Shown: piece after piece, positions 1 through 61,484 of the stretch
Numbering within the stretch: the stretch's first letter is position 1
How the letters are laid out: every line of letters starts with the position of its first letter
Translations under genes and position numbers: made by a program
The notes under the pieces: model-generated
Seen by the model: the letters and a program-made list of their open reading frames with translations, nothing else
Databases searched by the model: none
Told to the model about the DNA's origin: nothing
DNA from: Lophium mytilinum
Taxonomy: Eukaryota
Assembly: GCA_010093605.1 (NCBI GenBank)
Contig: MU004198.1
Span: 126,726 to 190,725, forward strand
Direction: 5' to 3'
Length of the DNA: 64,000 nucleotides

Positions 1-591
1 TCGCCAGCTCAGTCATCCTACTTACACATAACATTGTCTACTCAAGTGGTCCCAGATCAGTCATTACAGAACGAAATCAACGATGAAAGCTCCGACCAGG
101 AACCAATGTCCAGAGCGTCCACAGCCGTAGACATGGATAGTCCAATCGCACAAAGCAGACGCCCAACCCAAGAATTGTTTCCACACCATGAAACGCCTAG
201 TGAGACGAAACAATACCCAGATCTGCACTCATCAGGCTCGCAACTCCCAGATAAGGCAATAGCCCTTTATGGGCAGGAGCCGTTTCTACCTCATCAAGGT
301 GCCAACATCCGTGGCCGCCAGTATGCCAAACCCTTCAAGGACTTGTCATCAAGACAACCCACCCAACTCCCCAACGGCCAAGGATCTTTCAACTTTAGCG
401 GAGATTACTTTGATGAAGTCACTGCTAGCGGCAATGCTAAGCAATGGGCTGGACGATTCGGATCGGCCACTATGCCACAAGCATCCCAGTCAACCGGCAA
501 TTACTATGGAAAGATCAATTCTACTGAAAGTTCGAGGACATACCTTGGCCATTTTAGTGATGAGCAATGTAAAGATATTTTCAACCAATAA
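1..591 (+). CDS. 3' end of a gene that starts upstream of the window; disordered linker plus C-terminal two-repeat HET-s-like (HRAM-type) amyloid motif
   Basis: Frame 1 is open from base 1 to TAA at 589-591. The C-terminal pseudo-repeats DYFDEVTASGNAKQWAG (403-453) and NYYGKINSTESSRTYLG (499-549) are in register with HET-s PFD repeats R1/R2. Confidence 0.6.
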   Translation, partial: SPAQSSYLHITLSTQVVPDQSLQNEINDESSDQEPMSRASTAVDMDSPIAQSRRPTQELFPHHETPSETKQYPDLHSSGSQLPDKAIALYGQEPFLPHQGANIRGRQYAKPFKDLSSRQPTQLPNGQGSFNFSGDYFDEVTASGNAKQWAGRFGSATMPQASQSTGNYYGKINSTESSRTYLGHFSDEQCKDIFNQ

Positions 592-4830: not shown

Positions 4831-7083
4831 CTACCTCCTTCGATGATAACTGATTTCTGTCATATCGTCTACCGGATAAGGCAGTGGAGCTCCCCCTCTT
4901 CGCCCACCCCACGGTGGCGGTGGTGCCATCTCCCTTTCGCGAGTAAGCCGCATATGCTCCATTCTCTCTTCCATCAACCTTCGCTGCTGCCTTTCCGCGG
5001 GCGACTCTCGCGCCTCCAATGGCAGATACTCCGGCGCAGGCGCTAGTCGGCGCTGACCACTATACTGAGGCACATCGTGCCTCATCGAGCGTGGCACGTC
5101 GGGTGGATAGCCGCTGTCCCACGTGAGTGACCGCTGCTGCTGCGGCGGCGGCGGCGGCGGCGGCGGCGCATTCCTTGGGTAGTTATTGTGCTCGCTACGC
5201 CCCTCGAGGGAAAGATGGCGGTAGGATATCATATCAGGACGCCTATCTGGGTGGTCCTGTTTTGGATACACAGGCTCGCTATCACGGCGAAGAGGTTGAC
5301 GAACCGGCGGGTGCTCGCGATGGTGTTGGAGCTCGCGGTGCTGCGTAGGCGGGACATGGTTTCTATACACTGGTTTTGGGCGGCGTTGCTCGGTTGCTGT
5401 ATCGCGCTTGTACAGCGACCCCTTTCGACTAGGTGGGTAGTCGTCTTCGAGGCTGCTAGGTGGGGTGGGTGGGGAGGGCCTAGGGTCTGTGAATACGGAG
5501 TTGCCGGAGTGAGAGAAGGCGGAGCCGCCTTCGTCATAATACGAGTCCTCAGAATCTTGGTCGGAGACGTTGCGGTGATGAGAGGGCTCGATCCAGCCCT
5601 TCACTTTCGAATGAGCGTCGTACGCAGAGCTGCGGGTCTCTGGGTAAAATGTAGGACCGCGATCGATAGGAGCGGGTTGGGTGATGTTGATGATGGTAGT
5701 ACTGGGGTTTGTGTTGGGGGGACTGGGCTGGCGTTTGAGATGCTTCCCAATGGGAGGAGGTGGGAGGGTTTTTGGAGGTTTGGGTTGAGTGGACCTTTTC
5801 TCGCGCGACTGATGGCGGTTGCGTTGGTCGATGTAGTCGTCCAACTCTTCTTCTGAGCTAGATCCAGTGTCGGAGTAGTCTGAAACCTCCTCGTCGGTGG
5901 GATGATGCAACATCTTGACCCTTTGCTTCTGAAAGGCTTCACTGTCCTTCACTTTTGGAAACTTGGGAGGCTCGTATCGCATGCTTGGCTGCTGAGTTGG
6001 TTTTGGCATACCACCCATCTGTGGGATAGCACCCATTTGCTGTAGCATAGCACCCATCTGCTGTGGCGTAGGACCCATTTGCTGCGGCATTCCGCCCATC
6101 TGCTGCGGCATTCCACTCATCTGCTGCGGTATGACTTGTATTTGAGGCGCAGGTGGTGGCGGAGGTGGAGGAGGAGGAGGTGGTGGAGCCATCTGAGGCT
6201 GCTGGTTCTGCGGGCGGTTCTGCTGTTGCTGTTGTTGCTGATGCGGCTGAGGAGCAGGAGGGGGCGGTGGTGGTGGTGGAGGAGGCTGCTGCATCTGCTG
6301 CTTTTGCTGTTGTACAGGAGCTGGGGGCGGAGGCGGAGGCGGTGGGGGTGGGAACCCTTGATTATGGGTATTAGGTCTATTTTGCCCTTGATTCCCCGGA
6401 TTCGGCCCCTGGTTCTGTCCTGAATGTTGAGGCTGTTTCTGGTTTTGGTTTTGGGAGTTCCCTGGGTTTGGTTGCGGGGCCTTTCCTCCTTGGGATTGCT
6501 TCTGGTTTTGGGCATTTCCATTGCTGGCTTTGGGCTCACGAGCATAGTATGGGTCCTGATGATCGTCGAATTGGCTGGACATGGCATTCGCCTTTACTTG
6601 GGTCTTCAGGATGACTGTGATTGCAACTACTTGTTTATACTTTCGGTTGAGATCCTTCCATTCTACATCAATACTGGCCATAGTCCACTCGATATCCCTG
6701 GCAGATCGGGAGAGCTCCTTGTTCTGCTCGTCGATGAGCCTGTCAATCTGAAGGCGCATGTGGTCGGACTTGAGGCTATCATATTCGTTTTGTACAGAGC
6801 GGTGCAGCTTTTCTTTCTTAAGGCGCTGCTTCTTGACTAGAAACATGAGATCATCCATGGGTATTCTCATGGGGAGCTGCCGGACTCGCTGCCAGGATGG
6901 TTCCATGATGCCTTCCGGGAGTTCCTCGAGGGACACTTTTCGGAGAACCCATCCTGTGTATTGAGAGGTGAAACCACTATAGCCGGGGAATTGGCTAAGA
7001 GAGGTCCTTGGCCCTGCTTGCTGCACTTGTCGGAACTGGTCTCCTTGCGGGAGTGGTTGCCCACCATGTCCTCCCACCATCAT
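4831..7083 (-). CDS. Hypothetical Pro/Gln-rich protein (750 aa) with a folded-looking N-terminal domain and low-complexity C-terminal region
   Basis: Uninterrupted 2.25-kb ORF. The N-terminal segment YTGWVLRK...IEWTMASI...ITVILK looks globular; it is followed by Q/N-rich and polyproline tracts. Confidence 0.85.
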   Translation of the reverse strand: MMVGGHGGQPLPQGDQFRQVQQAGPRTSLSQFPGYSGFTSQYTGWVLRKVSLEELPEGIMEPSWQRVRQLPMRIPMDDLMFLVKKQRLKKEKLHRSVQNEYDSLKSDHMRLQIDRLIDEQNKELSRSARDIEWTMASIDVEWKDLNRKYKQVVAITVILKTQVKANAMSSQFDDHQDPYYAREPKASNGNAQNQKQSQGGKAPQPNPGNSQNQNQKQPQHSGQNQGPNPGNQGQNRPNTHNQGFPPPPPPPPPPAPVQQQKQQMQQPPPPPPPPPPAPQPHQQQQQQQNRPQNQQPQMAPPPPPPPPPPPPAPQIQVIPQQMSGMPQQMGGMPQQMGPTPQQMGAMLQQMGAIPQMGGMPKPTQQPSMRYEPPKFPKVKDSEAFQKQRVKMLHHPTDEEVSDYSDTGSSSEEELDDYIDQRNRHQSREKRSTQPKPPKTLPPPPIGKHLKRQPSPPNTNPSTTIINITQPAPIDRGPTFYPETRSSAYDAHSKVKGWIEPSHHRNVSDQDSEDSYYDEGGSAFSHSGNSVFTDPRPSPPTPPSSLEDDYPPSRKGSLYKRDTATEQRRPKPVYRNHVPPTQHRELQHHREHPPVRQPLRRDSEPVYPKQDHPDRRPDMISYRHLSLEGRSEHNNYPRNAPPPPPPPPQQQRSLTWDSGYPPDVPRSMRHDVPQYSGQRRLAPAPEYLPLEARESPAERQQRRLMEERMEHMRLTREREMAPPPPWGGRRGGAPLPYPVDDMTEISYHRRR
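6004..6130 (-). repeat. Coding 21-bp minisatellite (QQMG(G/A/P)(M/T/I)P heptads)
   Basis: About six imperfect copies of CAT(C/T)TGCTG(C/T)GGCAT.CC.CC on the + strand. Confidence 0.75.
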
Positions 7084-10000
7084 GTGGATTAGGAGGCGAA
7101 TATAATTGAATGATGGTTTAGATCAGAGATAACAAGAGAGTAAGAGTGGCGAAGTGGAGAAAGACGGTGAGGTAAATTGACGTGTCAGGCAGAGAAGAGC
7201 CTACGCTTAAGAATGAAGATAAGATTGAAGGGTATTAATAGGGCAGCATAACCTGATAAATGAGGCGGGGAAGGGGTTTCAGAATGGGATATATAGACAT
7301 CACCTCCTACCTCGAGTATCAGGTCGGTGTTTGTCTTGCTTGACAAGGACTCTCGCGGCTAGGCCTCATGCACGACTCTGGCACCACGTACAAGGCGATC
7401 GGTAAAGGACCAGCTGATAACACAGGCGGGACCTCTGACACTCACTTGATTGGTGTTTTTATGTTTCGTGTGCTTGCCTCAGCATTCGAATGGCTGCGGT
7501 GGACTCCCGCCGGTGAGGATGGTGCTTCCCATAGCGTCGGGCGTAAAAGAAGGCAATCGAAAAGTCAGATGCCTTCACGCCCGTCCTCGCGGCCTGCGAT
7601 TGGCCTTTGGAAGCAATTCGAGGTTCAAGATCATTGACCGGAAGACGCCCCGCGCCAGGAAGTAGGAGATGTAGCGAATATCGCTCCCAACTTCCGGATA
7701 GTCGACACGGCCTGATGGTGTTGCTCCTGCAGCCATGTCTGTTACATCCGGGAACTTGCTAGTACTTCCAGCCACTATTGCTTGCATCTGATAGGGACAG
7801 CCTAACAAGGCAGACTATGCTTTTGTGTTTGGGGTACGCGATGATGCCGTCGGCAGAAGGCAAAGGGATGAAGTCGAAGTCCACTAGCACCCGTCGATCG
7901 CCCCGCTTGGACCAGGCGTTGAGGGATGGCAGATCACTGACGACGTAGTAAGAAGGCAACCACCAACTAACAGGGCGATATACGACAACACCATGAGGGA
8001 CAATTTGAGGGACTTCGCCGGGCCGTCGCCGCTCACAATCAGGGCGCAGTCCTTCGCCCGGCCGTGTCTCAACATGTGTCTACCGCCTGGTGCCCGGCAT
8101 TTCCACCCCGCCAGCGCACTCTTCTCACCACTGCCTGCTGTCGTGCTCTGCCCAACTGAGTCACCTTTGCTCCAGCGCTGAAGCAACTGCAGTGCTGCCA
8201 GATTTCAGACCTGACGCTGAAACCGCCGAGTACCCCTCACAGGCACCAGCGAGCCATCGTAGCACATATGCGCCGAACATTCCTCTGCTTCGTGCCTCTG
8301 CAGCGGTGCTGTGAAGGCGATCAATACCATCATGGTGGAAACCACTCTCACGGCTGCGAGCGGAAGCTGTCTTTGCGCAGTGGAGTGCTATCCGCGTCCA
8401 GCTTGCCATTCGTGTAGGGTCTGCTTTTACGAGCTTCTAAGAACGCCTGCATATGCACAGCGTCACGCACTCCAACTGCCTTCCAGGCTGGGCTGGCTGG
8501 AATCGCATCCATGCCCTCGCGACGGGCCCTCGAGGCCGCTCCATATGCGGGCACCCACACTGGCATGGTGGAGCAACCCTATTGCTTCCCGGCAATGCGA
8601 ACCCATGGATACTGCCAAGGGTTCAGCCTTGCGAGCAGGGCGGACGGGCGTTCTTGGATATCATCCTTAGTCCCGAATAGGAAGAGGTTGAGCAATCTTT
8701 CTGGAGGACTGCAGGGGTGTGGTTCGTGTGTCTCCATGTAATCCCTTCATGTCAGATTTCCATCACACACAACTCGCGATGGCCGTCGGCATGGCTCGTG
8801 CGTAACCAAAGCGTTTCCGATTACAGCCTCTCTTTGCGTCCGGTGGTCACTCTCTAATACCAAGCCACAAACTTACCTTATAAGGGAGCGACTCCGAGCG
8901 CCTTTAGGGGGGAATAGCACCCTTCTGGCCAACCAAATCTCGAGCCGCTTCAGTGCTAACCTGGAAAAGCGCAATACCAGGATCGACTCAGCTTAGCGCT
9001 GGGTCACCGGACGCAAAGAAAGGCTGTAGTCCACGGTTCTAGATGTCCGCCTATGGCGAGCATCCGGGCCTTGAAACGCTATCTCATCCAAGCGACGTTA
9101 CCACCATGAGTATTGATCATACCACCAAAAATTCGGAACTGGTTGAGTAGTCTTTTGCAATGCTTCCCAGCTCGTTAGCCTTGTATTTCAATCACACTTG
9201 TCTTTTCTTCTGCCGTGGAACACTATCACTTTAAGGCAATCACTTCGCGTCAAACGAAGTATCGATAGTTGAATAGTACATCTCGTGGATTCAACGACAT
9301 TTCGAAATTGGCCTTATCATGTTTTGGTCCATAAGCTCTACCACAAAAATATAACAAGAAGCTTAAAATGGTTAGCCTCCTAAGACAGATCAGCTCAACT
9401 GTCTCATTCCTCTGTTTCTATACATACTAATGGATGGTATTCGATTTTCTATTCTAACGAGTCATTTCTATCATTCTCGACCGCTGTCTCACGGTCGCAG
9501 TATCATCACCTACCCAAAAACAAACTCACAAACTACCTCCTTCACGCTAAGTGCATCGTGCTCCGTTCCACGGACAAACTCCCAAAACGCCATCCCTCCT
9601 TCCCCGCAGCAGTGCCACACGATCGGTCCTCTCACTCGTCTGCCCGCCTCACTCCAAAACACCATGCCACCATGACCGCATTACCGAATCCGGACACCGT
9701 GATTCCAACGTGAGGCTACCATCACATGGCCGAAAATGGTACACCTCATCCACCTCACTTTCAACGCCGTCCATGCCCACCACGACGTCGCAACACTCCA
9801 TCCACGCGCAAAGGGCGCTGCACTCTGCACGCTTACTAACTACCGTCTTCGCCGAGGTGCCAATTTAACCGATCACGTGCAGCTTAGTCATCAATGTATT
9901 CGTTTCGCGGGCTGATCGATGTCAGTCCTTGACGGATGTCACCTCTGCGCCTAACACTCTCGCGACATGGCAAGACTTGCCTCCCGAGAGTACCGATTAC

Positions 10001-55512: not shown

Positions 55513-57149
55513 GGTTCCTGCCGACAGGGAGTGGTCCAGCACTTGGGGTCGTGTAAGAAAGTAGGAACGCTGGAGAGATGTTCGATGGGTCGTCCGTAAT
55601 GGTTGTCAAGACTGGCGGTTGCATGAAGGACGCGACGGAATCGATAACAGCAAAGGAGATGCGGCGGCAGTGGACGGTGGAGTTGCAGCAACTAGCGGTG
55701 GGCGGCCCAAGAGAGAAGTGACCTGCTGAATGCAGAGGAGGCCAGGCCAGGCTCGGAGATGTTGCTGAGATTAGGATCTTGTTGATCGCCGTGATGTTGG
55801 ATGCGCGAACTGCCCAGGTACGTTCGATATCTGCCGGAGAAAACTATGGAAGCTGTCACAAGCGTCGGATGCGGCGCGGATGGCAATGTGAAATGTAACT
55901 CCTGGATATATTGACTTTCGTAGGTAGCCCGGTCCCAGCAATCAATTGAGAAATAGAGAATACAAGAGCAACAACGAGCGACTTGAGGGAGAGGTGCGGC
56001 AGCATGGGGGCAAGGGTGCGGGAAATGCAGGTCAACCGTGCTCCCGTGCCCATGTCCCTGAAGGAGGCGTCCGAGGCCAGTCGATTCGCCGGCCGGTGAT
56101 TTGCTGCACTCTCAAAAGGCCATGCACAGGGCGTTCGGAGGCGCGCAGGCCAGGGGAGCCAAGACTTCGTGCCGCGACCATATTGGCAGCACCCTGCCGG
56201 CGACAGGCGCAACGTGAGATGACACAACCCACTGGTCTGCCTCGCTGGGCGTCGCAGCCGCTGGGAACACGTTTTGTGGCCGTGTAGGGCTGGGTACGAG
56301 GTCACGATGACCTTTGGTGAGTGGTGCTGGGAGACGTGGTTCGCAGACGGAGCCGTCACCAAAGCACGCCGGCGAGGAGTGGGAGATGAGAGATATCGCG
56401 AGCCAATCACGCCAGCGAGCCCCTGACGACGACCCGGAGTGCCTGAGTGCTTGAGTGCGGACTGCCGCCGGTGCAATCGAGCCCCTGGGCGGCCAGCCAT
56501 GACGGCAAACAATGTGGAGGTCGCTTCGAAACTCTGATCGCTGGCCGAACACGTCGTCCAAGTCTGAGTTCGCCCCAGGGATGTGTTCTGAGCATTGTTG
56601 CCTGTGCCGCCATGGTTTGGGACTATGTTGCGGCCAGCGCCACCACGAAGTCGACTGTTTCGGTGCGTCTGAGGCATGCGAGAAACCCAAATGGAACTGT
56701 ATCCCCCGACGGCCAGCATGCCGAATTGCTTCTTTCTTCGCGGTCCGGTCCGTCTCGATTCGACGCCGCTTGATAAGTCTAGCACTTACTAGACGCATAC
56801 CGCTATGTATACCGGGTTTGTTGTACGCGAGAAACCTAGGCTTGGAGGAGTAACTGGTGTGCCGATTAGGAGGCGTTCTGCTAGTAATTAGCATTCTTGG
56901 CACTTGTTATTTACTTCCTGCGTGATCTTTATAAAATCTGGATACTGCTTGGCAGCAGTAGCAGCCGGCTATATTAATATTAGCGTGGTGTTTAGGCCCT
57001 TATAGATTAGCCCAAGATTATTAGGGGGAGGATAACCCTTAGTAGACCGTTTTTTAGTATTTTAACGTAAGGTCAGCGTCCTTCTATTATCTTAATATCT
57101 CTATATTTTGTATTTTTATTAAAAATTAGCTAAAATTATTCTAAAATAG

Positions 57150-58378
57150 ATAAAACTAATACTTACCTGCGCCGCTTTCTCTCTATATATAGCACCGCTG
57201 CTATAGCTATTACTAAATTAAATAGGGCTGCCTATAGTACTCTACTACAGGAGAATTTAGATCTTTATCTTAAAGAGCTTAATAATAATAAATAGAATAA
57301 CTTTAAAGATAAGAAGCTTAATAAGGAATTAGATAGTAACGGCGAGCTACTAGTAAATTAGCTACCGCAATATTATAATAATCTACTATATACTTAGTAT
57401 TCCTTTATAGATTATTTTAATATAATTAGTAAGGAAACCTACCGCTATAAAATATAATTTAGTAAGCCTAAGATTCTTACGCTCGCCCGTTTATTCTATC
57501 TTAATAACTGCCGGCTTAATTACTACTACTAGGCCTCTCTAGTAATAAAGCTATATATTATTCTATAGCGCCTTACCTTTCTATAATAATTTAGTAATAT
57601 AATAGCTATATTTAGGCGTAGTAGGTAGTAGATTTATAGTATTTTCTAGAATATAGTATAGTTTCTAGCTTATTACTATAAAGCTTATATATTCTAGAAT
57701 AGAAGAACTTTAACGCGCAAGAAGCTAGAGGACTACACCGCGGCAATAGAAAGGCACCTAGGAATTAGTAAAGTTTAGAGCTATATTAATAGAACTATAC
57801 GGCCTATAGCTAATTCTAATTATCTAGAAATATAGGTAATAATATACTCGGGCTATAAGAAGATAACTTACCTTAAGTTCTAGGCCATTATTATGCTAGA
57901 TAGATTAATTTACTCTCTTACCGGCCCTTTTCCGGGCTCTACAGGCAATTTTAAGATGGCTAAGAAGTCTAGATTAATAATAAAGCTAGAGTAGATATAT
58001 AAGGGGCTACTAGTTAAAGAGATTCTATATCTCTATAGTAATTTAGCTTATATTAATAGCTGGGGCATAATTAGAGCCTTTAAAGGTAGGCTAATTAACT
58101 ATATAATAAGGCGGCCTAATTAATAGTAGTATAATAGAGAGCTAGTAAGCCTCTAAGTAGCTATTAAGTATAGCTTTAGTTTAGTAATAAAGTACTAGAG
58201 CTTTAGATTCTATTATATAGCTATAAGAAGTTATTAATTACCTATAGGCAGCTATTATATTATAGCAGTTCTTCTAATAAACTATTTAAGCTATTTCTAG
58301 GGCAATTAGATAGTAGATAAGTATAAGATAGGCACGCCTAATATAGAGGAGTACCTAGGCGTTAAGAAAGTAGTATAG
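57150..58378 (+). pseudogene. RIP-destroyed HARBI1/DDE_Tnp_4-type transposase (5' end approximate)
   Basis: One frame from 57773 reads V*SYINRTIRP, YSGYKK..LKF*AI, GPFPG, LYSNLAY, L*VAIKYSFS, AVLLIN..GN*I..EEYL. Reversing C>T/G>A changes gives VWGYIDGT.RP, LKFQA, LYGD.AY, RVAIEH.FG and VLLTNC..GNQ. Confidence 0.88.
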
Positions 58379-58699
58379 TATTAAGAATAGAATTAAATAT
58401 AGCCCTCTAGTAGCCTTTCTATTTTATATAGCCTTACTATAACTAATTTTAGCCTATAATATTATTACTACCTAATAAGTAAGAATTTAACTAATTAGAG
58501 GCCGCGCTAGGCCTAGCTCCCGCTCGCTAGCGAAATAGGTAAGGAAAATTAAACTACTAAAATAATAATAAAGTTTAATACTAATATATTTATACCTAAG
58601 TTTTAATACTAATTCTATATTAATTTACTCTAAAATAATAAGAGACTATAGTAGAGGACTGCAGCTATAATTTATACTAATTATATTAAGGCTAGAGGT

Positions 58700-59950
58700 A
58701 ATAGCGTTTAAACGCCCTACTCCCCTCTTATCTAGCTTAAAATATCTAAGTTTCTAGGCGTATTAGGGCCGCAATTCTTTAAGCTAGGTAATCTATTAAG
58801 CTCTATATCTAGAGTTTCTAATAGATCTATAACCTCTATATTCTTCTTCTTATTCTCTTTATTATAGCTAACCTTTCTACTACCTCTATAAACCTCTCTA
58901 GGCCTCTACTAGTTACTAGAGGCCTTACTAAGCGCCTTATAAGGACTAGCGGGCTCTAAAATTAGCCTTAGAGTACTTAAAAGCGCCTAAATAAGTACCT
59001 TATTTAATTTCTTTTAAGCCTTAATTAATACTATATTATAGTAGACCTAGGCTATTTTACGCCGCTACTTGCGCTCCTCTATATTAATTCTATACCTATT
59101 ATCTTAAAAACGCCTCTTATTCTATACTACTATAAAGCCTTAATATTAAGAGGCTTTCTATAGTACTGTACTACCGCTTTAAGGCTGCCTAGATCTATTA
59201 TTAACTGCCTTAATACCGCGCTTTCTACCCTGCTCGGCCGTAAGGTTATAGATAATATTAGCGCGGTTCTACCTGCGGGCGTTAAAGCTAGGTAGGCCCT
59301 TATAGTGCTTTTTAAAGTTATTATTAACATCTATAGTCTTATTAATTATAATATTAAGAAGTTAAGTATACTTTATATCTCTCTAGATAGTTCTAGTCTT
59401 ATAGCTTTACTTTTTACGCTTCTTAATACGCGCGTCTATTACACGCTATAGAAATTAATAGTAGTTACTATACTTATAGGCACGCTCTATATAAAGTAAC
59501 CGGCGATTAAACTCTAGTTATATTTTATTATCTATCTACCTTTTAAACTCTCTCTTTTTATATATAAACTTTAATTATATATAAATCTAAAGAAGTAATA
59601 GCTTCTTCTTCTCTAAGAGCTGCTAGCGCGTGTTTAATTATACTATAGTATAGTTTAGAGGATTATATATTACGCTATTATATAGATTCTCTTTCTTAAT
59701 ATTATTATCTTTAATTACTAGAGGAATAGGCGGCTTCTATAATACTCTAGTTACTACTCTAGGCGTAGCTTCTAGCGTAGCTCTAGGTATAGGCCTAGGG
59801 CCTATATACTCTAGCTTCTTATTTATATTATAGTTATAGAGAGGTAGATAAGGCCCCGTAGTTAAGATAGGCTAGTAATAGCTACTAGCAGCTACTTAGT
59901 AGTAGAAGTTATATACTAGTCTAGGGTATAGGCTCTTACTACCCTTATTA
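58700..59950 (-). pseudogene. Probable RIP-destroyed second ORF of the element (Myb/SANT-like accessory protein expected)
   Basis: Minus-strand reading gives charged helical relics (LEFNRRLL.IERAYK, DARIKKRK..KTRT). A second ORF is expected in PIF/Harbinger elements. Boundaries are approximate. Confidence 0.4.
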
Positions 59951-61484
59951 AGTAGATAAGTAAATTAAGAGAGGGTAGGCTAATAAGATAATATTATAAA
60001 ATAAGGTAGTAAGTATTAATTTTTCTAAGTATATTAATAAGAGAATAATTCTAATAGCTTAGTTAACTTAGGTAAAGATTTCTTAGTAATATAGTATAAG
60101 AAGAACTTAGCCCTCTTAAATATAAATATTAGCCGGCTTCTTATTAATATACTCCGCCTTCTATATTATTATCTATATTATCCTCTATACCTCTAGGTAG
60201 TAATTCTTTCTATTAAGAATAAGTTAATTAAACTGCGTATTCTATACTAAATTATCTAATATAGCTAGAACCTTATAGATTAATTATAAAGAAAAAGAAG
60301 AATATTTAAATAATAAGTAATTTATACTACTAATAGTACTAAGCCCCGCACCTATATTACTAAACTAATAATCTTTAACTCTTAATTACCTTATTAAGCT
60401 AGCAGGTTTATTACGGATTTTAAGGCTATCTAGTCTTAGTATTAGGGTAAGGCTAACGCCTTATATAAACTAATGCTGGGGGCCCCTGCTAGTAAAAATT
60501 TATAAAATTCTTGTGCTAATAATTGTAATAGGGGGTTAATGCTACAACGTATTAATATACGTGTTAAATAGCCTGTTTTGGGTAATGCATGCGGTTGCGG
60601 TATGCGTCTACTTATGCACCACATCCGCCGGCCTGCCGTCTGGCGTCCCTCTCCCATCCCATTCCAAATTCTTGATAGCCTTCGCCGTGGGAGCACCTGT
60701 ACGTAAAACCATCTCGTGCTTCTGCCGTGTCTCTACCTCTGCTATTGCCCCACACCAAGACGTCTGACGTCCACCGCAGAGCCCTGAAGCGCGCGCTGTC
60801 TCGCATATGTCGTGGCCCTGAAAGCGCGTGCCCGCCCCGCTTACGGTAGCACATGCTGCTCGGAGTGGCACTTCATGTCGATGTGTGCACAAGCAAGGTT
60901 GGCGACATGTCGACAGCACGTTGATTTTGACAGACCGTGTTTCTTACCGACACTACTGTTGACAGACTCGGCACCCTGCATGTCTTCAGCCGCCCTAAGC
61001 GTGCTTAGGACGACATCGGCTGCCCAAGGGTCTGGAGTAGTGGAGTCGCAGTACTCCACCGCGGGGCAATGCCAACGAGCATCGTGAGAAGCCTCCTGCC
61101 TCCGCTTCCCCAGCAATAGGCTTTGTCTGCATATCCGTCTCTTGAAATCTGCACGCTTATCAGCGCCATCACATCTCAGCAGTAGCACTCGCCGCAGATT
61201 GGCCCTGTGACTGCTCGGAACGCCCTCTTCTGTGATTCCGTGACAGCTGGAGACGGTGGATATGGATTCCTGTCAGGGTACAGTACACGTTGACATCGCG
61301 AAACGCTACTGCTGGCCGCCTGGCGCTGCCATTGGCTCGCCCAGGCTCATCGGCGGCACGCAATTATCTAGCCTCAGGCTTGGAGTCGCAATTGGAAGAA
61401 GCGGTGGGATGCACTCTCCGGCTTGGGCCGGCACGACGCGTTTGCTATCGATAAGCCTTCGGAGAGAAACACGAGTGCTCCCTC

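Follow-up and report, generated by a model that had tools for sequence, protein, structure and literature searches.

At the left edge of the window, a stretch of 64,000 nucleotides of Lophium mytilinum DNA (G000:C18:126726-190725, in a 43-Mb fungal assembly), a frame on the plus strand is open from position 1 to 591 and its C-terminal end consists of two repeats. The initial annotation had read these repeats as a HET-s-like amyloid motif on an effector that would be templated by an NLR encoded nearby. What kind of protein carries the repeats, and what would seed them? The features that bear on this question are collected in Table 1.

Table 1. Features of the effector gene, the gene next to it and the paralogue of that gene (positions without a prefix refer to the window)
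Feature	Position	Strand	Description
Candidate receptor gene	L002:6423-7503 = G000:C18:123922-125002, left of window	+	344 aa once a 46-nt intron is removed
Effector exon 1	L001:898-1485 = G000:C18:126123-126710, left of window	+	SesA-type helical domain (about aa 1-140), start of linker
Probable intron, 3' part	1..60	+	CAG acceptor at 58-60
Exon 2, disordered linker	61..396	+	Rich in P, S, Q, E, D and R
Repeat R1	397..459, core 403-453	+	21 aa: D3, F5, V8, A10, K15, Q16, W17, A18, G19
Inter-repeat loop	460..492	+	11 aa
Repeat R2	493..555, core 499-549	+	21 aa: N3, Y5, I8, S10, R15, T16, Y17, L18, G19
C-terminal tail	556..591	+	11 aa ending I-F-N-Q, then stop; short helix predicted
C6 paralogue	L168:709-1812 (G000:C6, about 86.1-87.2 kb)		r0, transmembrane helix, stalk, cysteine domain

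Repeats, fold and family of the effector

With residues numbered in the 21-position HRAM scheme (PMC4518210), the end of the frame has the two-repeat HRAM layout of two imperfect repeats, a loop within the published range of 6-18 aa (PMC4518210) and a short tail. The positions that characterize an HRAM are occupied accordingly (F/Y5, V/I8, A/S10, K/R15, Q/T16, A/L18 and G19), position 16 is polar in both repeats, as it is in the Q16 subgroup, and K7 of R2 lies opposite E7 of R1. The cores are 17 residues each and the invariant glycines are 32 aa apart. The best ungapped self-match of the last 68 aa falls at the same offset of 32 with a score of 37, which none of 2000 shuffles equalled, the margin over the best shuffle (36) being narrow. 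The open frame thus ends as had been claimed, and the two pseudo-repeats at the C-terminus are real. The HET-s repeats with which they had been aligned agree with the 2RNM row of the published table (PMC4518210). Two signs that had been read as pointing to a variant motif or an atypical effector lost their meaning: the published HRAM table has G-R as well as G-H rows, position 20 being variable, and a long linker is a trait of the family. The linker had been put at a minimum of 130 aa; it is long, as stated, and now comes to about 164 aa, of which 65% are P, S, Q, E, D, K, R or G and 17% large hydrophobics. Since the first 60 bases of the window would be intron, its open frame probably begins with 20 residues that are not protein.

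A profile built from 18 homologues, with the query left out, scores the motif at 41.2 bits, while the best of 1000 shuffles reached 15.6 bits and none equalled the motif; the score falls to 32.8 bits once the closest homologue is also removed. The homologue alignment leads to HELLF in the PDB as the top match (6EKA, E 0.0014). In Pfam, neither PF11558 (HET-s_218-289) nor any other family matches the motif at E<=10, so that Pfam does not place the repeats in the canonical HET-s PFD (HRAM1). Searches with single sequences returned less. Phmmer of the motif against the PDB found neither HET-s nor HELLF, the Atlas search with the motif gave no usable match, and word-index protein searches gave no match or the query alone. 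In the AlphaFold model of the motif region (pLDDT 78.8) the strands of R1 and R2 are in register. At Z>=2 this model matches only two of 48,161 chains. One is HET-s 2KJ3 (Z 5.8, rmsd 3.9, 66 aligned), the other HELLF 6EKA (Z 5.5, rmsd 2.2, 53 aligned); Z-scores <8 can arise from a common arrangement, and the model may echo known structures. Foldseek also ranked HELLF 6EKA first, but at E 3.1. The beta-solenoid that was to be modelled is thus matched by a predicted fold that resembles HET-s and HELLF alone.

The N-terminal domain, for which the initial annotation had left several choices, is of the SesA type by two methods, which would make the protein a HeLo-related two-repeat HRAM effector. 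In the Atlas, the exon 1 protein has a first match of 0.97 and falls in a cluster with SesA on 13% of its members. Hhalign aligned the domain with the best SesA match of the genome at E 1.6e-5 over 112 columns and gave no match with the PigL_N domain of an effector on contig C5. Pfam has no match to SesA (PF17107) on the effector itself; when 32 homologues were scanned for Pfam domains, one had this family above the cut-off and three had it weakly, and two of the 32 were full NLRs. Taken with the profile and the fold, the repeats are very probably a true HRAM of a SesA-type effector.

The first 144 aa of the effector have 276 homologues at E<=0.001. Repeats were counted in 150 of the 276, with a single-repeat matrix from which four gapped rows were omitted and which was built in part from many of the same rows. 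At least one repeat was found in 27 of these 150 and at least two in 21, with three instead of two by the matrix in five (P0066, P0074, P0079, P0094 and P0099). Of the 21 listed homologues with at least two repeats, 14 are longer than 310 aa. The 2015 HRAM screen was limited to proteins of up to 310 aa (PMC4518210) and the reverse screen to C-termini of up to 150 aa (10.1101/2022.03.16.484565). The effector, at 372 aa with about 230 aa after the domain, therefore lies outside the limits of both. None of the rows in the five parts of the 2015 table (PMC4518210) has the motif of the effector or the Q-[ILV]-N-G signature that is common among its homologues; the Q16 subgroup comes nearest in this table, together with the HELLF group. 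A scan of metagenomes with the window's own domain gave 122 candidates, none of which was confirmed.

A candidate seed without an NLR

No NACHT or NB-ARC gene was found in the 103 kb around the effector (C18:87.5-190.7 kb), where all Walker-A motifs belong to a CDC48-type ATPase. The nearest NLR-type match on the effector's contig is at 317.8 kb. The neighbouring NLR that had been expected as the partner is therefore missing from these 103 kb, and a matching single repeat is found instead on the adjacent gene, which encodes a membrane protein. Elsewhere in the genome, four Pfam searches gave 40 NACHT, 5 NB-ARC, 70 NPHP3_N and 17 AAA_16 matches (overlapping), and about 1.5-2 kb upstream of them no repeat of the effector type was found; the scanned DNA amounts to ~0.48 Mb, about 1% of G000. 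As a positive control, a relaxed scan recovered the r0 of the NLR on contig C5. This NLR, a NACHT protein whose r0 is N-terminal, forms a canonical head-to-head pair (L106, G000:C5:1499543-1502791) with a PigL_N/HeLo-like effector that bears two HRAM repeats; the pair is identical to one row of the 2015 table (PMC4518210). Loose first looks at the same genome with the motif or with single exons gave no second effector and no third receptor. Six HeLo-domain matches in the genome showed no HRAM resembling the r0 of the adjacent gene or that of its paralogue (the frame at L176 is probably wrong).

Several other loci were seen during these searches. A HeLo protein on contig C20 (L172, G000:C20, about 749.9-750.9 kb) ends in an N/G-rich stretch with G-x-Q-x-G, which we take to be a PP-like motif; its 3.6-kb locus has no P-loop. 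On contig C10 (L033, G000:C10, about 407 kb), the short N-terminus of a NACHT gene is rich in N, G and H and may be a further amyloid motif. In the window itself, an AT-rich block at 57000-60500 is strongly marked by RIP (TpA/ApT reaching 1.9, substrate index 0.13-0.28) and is probably a decayed transposon. The segment 3380-4170 holds local duplications that are degenerate (60-165 bases long, 76-81% identical) and contain no long ORF. On the minus strand, 4831-7122 is an open frame of 763 aa, rich in P/Q and more ordered in its first third.

The candidate receptor gene lies 1,120 bases upstream of the effector. Its predicted intron (L002:6692-6737, 46 nt) has a GTAAGT donor, a GCTAAC branch site and a TAG end. 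Exon 1 ends at this donor in the r0 core NRFSLVNVSGRAKAFIG, which is identical to R1 at 7 of 17 positions, and exon 2 begins with N-F-Y-G. The protein consists of a P/Q-rich region, r0 (aa 72-92), six K/R residues, one transmembrane helix (about aa 109-131, hydropathy 2.8), a stalk that is 46% S/T/P and a domain with 12 cysteines. By the positive-inside rule, the charge bias would place r0, and with it the P/Q-rich region, on the cytosolic side. No Pfam family matches the receptor below E 0.06, an exact look-up of its exons in the protein collection found them absent, and the predicted fold of the cysteine domain, made from 2 sequences, has a pLDDT of 43.8. In the C6 paralogue, NWFRSIVNQGNCRSFAG closes exon 1 in the same glycine codon (G19) as the receptor r0, and the cysteine domain is 56% identical to that of the candidate receptor. 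The paralogue looks broken; ahead of the cysteine domain the frame runs into a stop (L168:1449-1451) and changes, and core position 10 holds a polar residue. No effector was found among the ORFs listed in the 20 kb around it, and its flanks are housekeeping genes.

How well does r0 match the repeats of the effector? Among 38 family repeats, the best two matches of the receptor r0 are R1 and then R2 of the effector, with scores of 36 and 31 versus 10 and 10 for the repeats of the C5 HRAM effector. For the r0 of the C6 paralogue, R1 is likewise the best match of the 38. The two r0 motifs agree at just 5 of 17 positions, and the stretches upstream of them at 2 of 24, yet R1 is the best match for both. 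When 30,770 G-ending 17-mers from about 0.48 Mb of G000 DNA were ranked against R1 and R2 together, the repeats themselves were followed by a stretch of URB2 (57), the C6 paralogue (55), the adjacent gene (54) and a next match at 44, and none of 3000 shuffles reached the score of either r0. The URB2 stretch is unrelated and has no aromatic residue at position 5; since this chance match scores as high as both r0 motifs, the score alone is no proof. The receptor r0 was noticed by eye before scoring, so that its figures are after the fact, and the C6 paralogue was found through its cysteine domain and not through the motif. A single repeat like the effector's own is thus present on the adjacent gene, but on a membrane protein, and its position at aa 72-92 counts against the pairing, as r0 is at the extreme N-terminus in NLRs.

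The strongest of the other explanations, and still an unlikely one, is that the protein is a conventional HRAM effector activated by an NLR that is unlinked or lost, with the repeat next door a coincidence or of no consequence. Among published effectors, 98 have an adjacent NLR and 57/155 do not (PMC4518210), NLR/effector pairs 95 kb apart are on record (10.1101/2022.03.16.484565), the URB2 match is as good as either r0, and the NLR scan consisted of the four Pfam searches only. Against it, the flanks of these overlapping matches hold no matching repeat, while the relaxed scan did recover the C5 r0, and the repeat has stayed at the same exon boundary in both paralogous membrane proteins.

Homologous loci were found in metagenomes (L134-L136), of which L135 and L136, from one lineage, are informative. 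They have an intron-less 330-aa relative of the effector with a non-NLR r0 gene upstream of it, and the ORFs listed there include no NLR. This gene (L136:3604-4146, plus strand, also in L135) encodes a 180-aa protein with an N-terminal r0, kept in 7/7 cluster members, and a 13-residue hydrophobic tail. A small ORF on the minus strand (L136:5158-5535) consists of a disordered part and two repeats. The r0 protein scores higher against this small ORF (65, 55) than against the effector (23, 32), and it differs from the candidate receptor. The effector, the r0 protein and the small ORF of L136 are possibly a three-gene amyloid cluster without an NLR.

The predicted intron and the probable full-length protein

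Exon 1 of the effector has 196 codons in the same frame as the window ORF and is parted from it by one TGA only. This TGA lies in frame inside a predicted 75-nt, phase-0 intron with a GTATGT donor at L001:1486, 15 bases left of the window, whose in-frame removal restores a single 372-aa frame. From its splice signals, the intron probably joins exon 1 to the window frame; alternative, out-of-frame acceptors lie at window positions 46 and 55. The single sequencing run that was compared covers the whole stretch as one unspliced contig, may itself be the source of this DNA and has no bearing on splicing. The SesA-type domain and the repeats occur in one chain in homologues. In L. mytilinum the one-chain effector hinges on the predicted intron, and a deposited model ends earlier: P0156 (200 aa) reads exon 1 through to the intronic stop. 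A second deposited model, P0002 (197 aa), stops at the same point, and neither has the repeats. Models that end inside the intron count against the full-length effector. The homologue P0003 of Lepidopterella palustris speaks for it. This 367-aa protein is 57% identical in the domain and has the domain, a linker of equal length and both repeats, and P0152 gives the P0003 chain as one continuous frame. The motif region is 37% identical to P0003/P0152 over 67 aa, while the linker is without similarity. A motif kept next to a linker without similarity, and a spliced length of 372 aa versus 367 aa, support the spliced full-length effector.

It is improbable that the protein has lost its repeats or carries them only rarely, with the intron retained or spliced out of frame to leave the 200-aa domain alone, while the locus decays or retains the switch in a regulated isoform. 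Both deposited models end in the intron, the out-of-frame acceptors at 46 and 55 are closer to weak branch candidates, and the C6 paralogue looks broken. However, 176 codons downstream remain open with the motif kept, the spliced length agrees with that of P0003, and the short models have company: 97 of the 150 listed homologues are <=235 aa, and these may be first-exon calls, which would be common in the collection.

Proposed signalling and related systems

From the match of the repeats and the order of the genes, we favour by a little the reading in which a surface receptor seeds the amyloid of the effector via its matching r0. In this proposal, the seed would most likely be the r0 of the adjacent membrane protein and possibly also that of the C6 paralogue, to which such a function can only be ascribed provisionally. 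A ligand from outside would cluster the membrane protein through its cysteine-rich domain, and the clustered r0 repeats would stack beneath the membrane and template R1/R2. The growing fibril would then concentrate SesA domains at the membrane, within reach by the 164-aa tether, and the concentrated domains would damage it. In known systems, oligomerised r0 repeats template R1/R2 and the N-terminal domain is released (PMC12881547). Since 164 disordered residues lie between switch and domain here, crowding at the membrane is likelier than direct unfolding. Different HRAMs need not cross-seed (10.1101/2020.07.06.188508, PMC7889193). Least likely is a real pairing with another role: the effector's amyloid might be kept at the membrane by the membrane protein acting as scaffold, decoy or inhibitor, or the outcome might be something other than death. 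In its favour, the cysteine domain has no known ligand or fold, amyloids of the insect IMD pathway signal without causing death (PMC13506858) and no test of killing by a SesA domain itself was found in the literature. On the other side, the single-repeat partner is an activator in the tested pairs NWD2/HET-S (PMC12881547) and Agp/Bab (10.1101/2024.11.07.622273), and exon 1 of the effector opens with a hydrophobic first helix (hydropathy 1.8).

The favoured reading, seeding by the adjacent receptor, can be compared with several known systems. HELLF/FNT1 of Podospora anserina (10.1101/2020.07.06.188508, PMC7889193) is the closest, 6EKA being both the best profile match and the lowest-rmsd fold match to the motif. 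Like the effector, HELLF has a HeLo-related domain, two 21-aa repeats with an aromatic residue at position 5 and a short helical tail ending in F. However, HELLF is 277 aa long with an NLR neighbour, whereas the effector has a 164-aa linker, a SesA-type domain and a membrane-protein neighbour; it also has D/N at position 3 and no Q-G at 18-19. HET-S/NWD2 (HRAM1; 2KJ3, 2RNM) shares N/D3, hydrophobic residues at 5/8/10/18, K/R15, G19, one salt-bridge pair (E7/K7 in the effector) and an adjacent single repeat. It differs in that the effector has no PF11558 match and no G-G-aromatic tail, and in that the partner is without NACHT or WD and its repeat is not N-terminal. The Q16 subgroup of the 2015 table shares A-K-Q-W at 14-17 with R1 and has tails of the x-x-A-x-D-F-F type, but R2 lacks Q16 and no row has the motif of the effector. 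The label HRAM5 denotes the Q16 subgroup in the 2015 text (PMC4518210) and HELLF in the 2020 paper (10.1101/2020.07.06.188508), with the Q at 18 in the 2015 numbering. In Bab/Agp of E. coli (BASS11, 10.1101/2024.11.07.622273), the genes are also adjacent and the membrane-targeting effector is switched on by a non-NLR partner that carries one amyloid motif; the system is bacterial, with a cytosolic TPR-GreA/B-PIN sensor and an unrelated motif.

Is there a precedent for a receptor at the surface that carries an amyloid motif? PGRP-LC is a membrane receptor. In Drosophila PGRP-LC/Imd (PMC13506858), the amyloid motif (cRHIM) of the pattern receptor seeds the downstream protein, as is proposed here. 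This is an analogy only, as the motif is of the RHIM type, the output is NF-kB and homology is not expected. In the accounts of PMC4518210, PMC12261475 and PMC12881547, the seeding motifs of fungi are placed on NLRs, at the N-terminus, and PMC12881547 lists the ligands of fungal immune receptors as an open question. No fungal surface receptor with an HRAM came up in the literature that was open to search; subscription papers and bioRxiv supplements (e.g. the neighbour lists of 10.1101/2022.03.16.484565) may hold one.

The effector belongs to a known type; the pairing of receptor and effector, if real, is a new form of amyloid signalling. More generally, we suggest as a tentative idea that fungi have type II single-pass receptors, with a mucin-like stalk and a cysteine-rich outer domain, that signal by HET-s-type amyloid to a necroptosis-like effector without an NLR, and that long-linker SesA-HRAM effectors, most of them too long for the published screens, are a class wired to non-NLR seeds. 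If this is true, both halves of such pairs would escape screens that stop at 310 aa or look only at C-termini of up to 150 aa or at the N-termini of NLRs, repeats cut by an intron would have the same effect, and a possible explanation is at hand for some of the effectors that were published without a neighbouring NLR (57/155 in 2015, PMC4518210). The outer domain of a surface protein would then be a ligand-accessible input for amyloid death signalling in fungi, comparable to the necroptosis set off at the cell surface in mammals and to the cRHIM signalling of insects.
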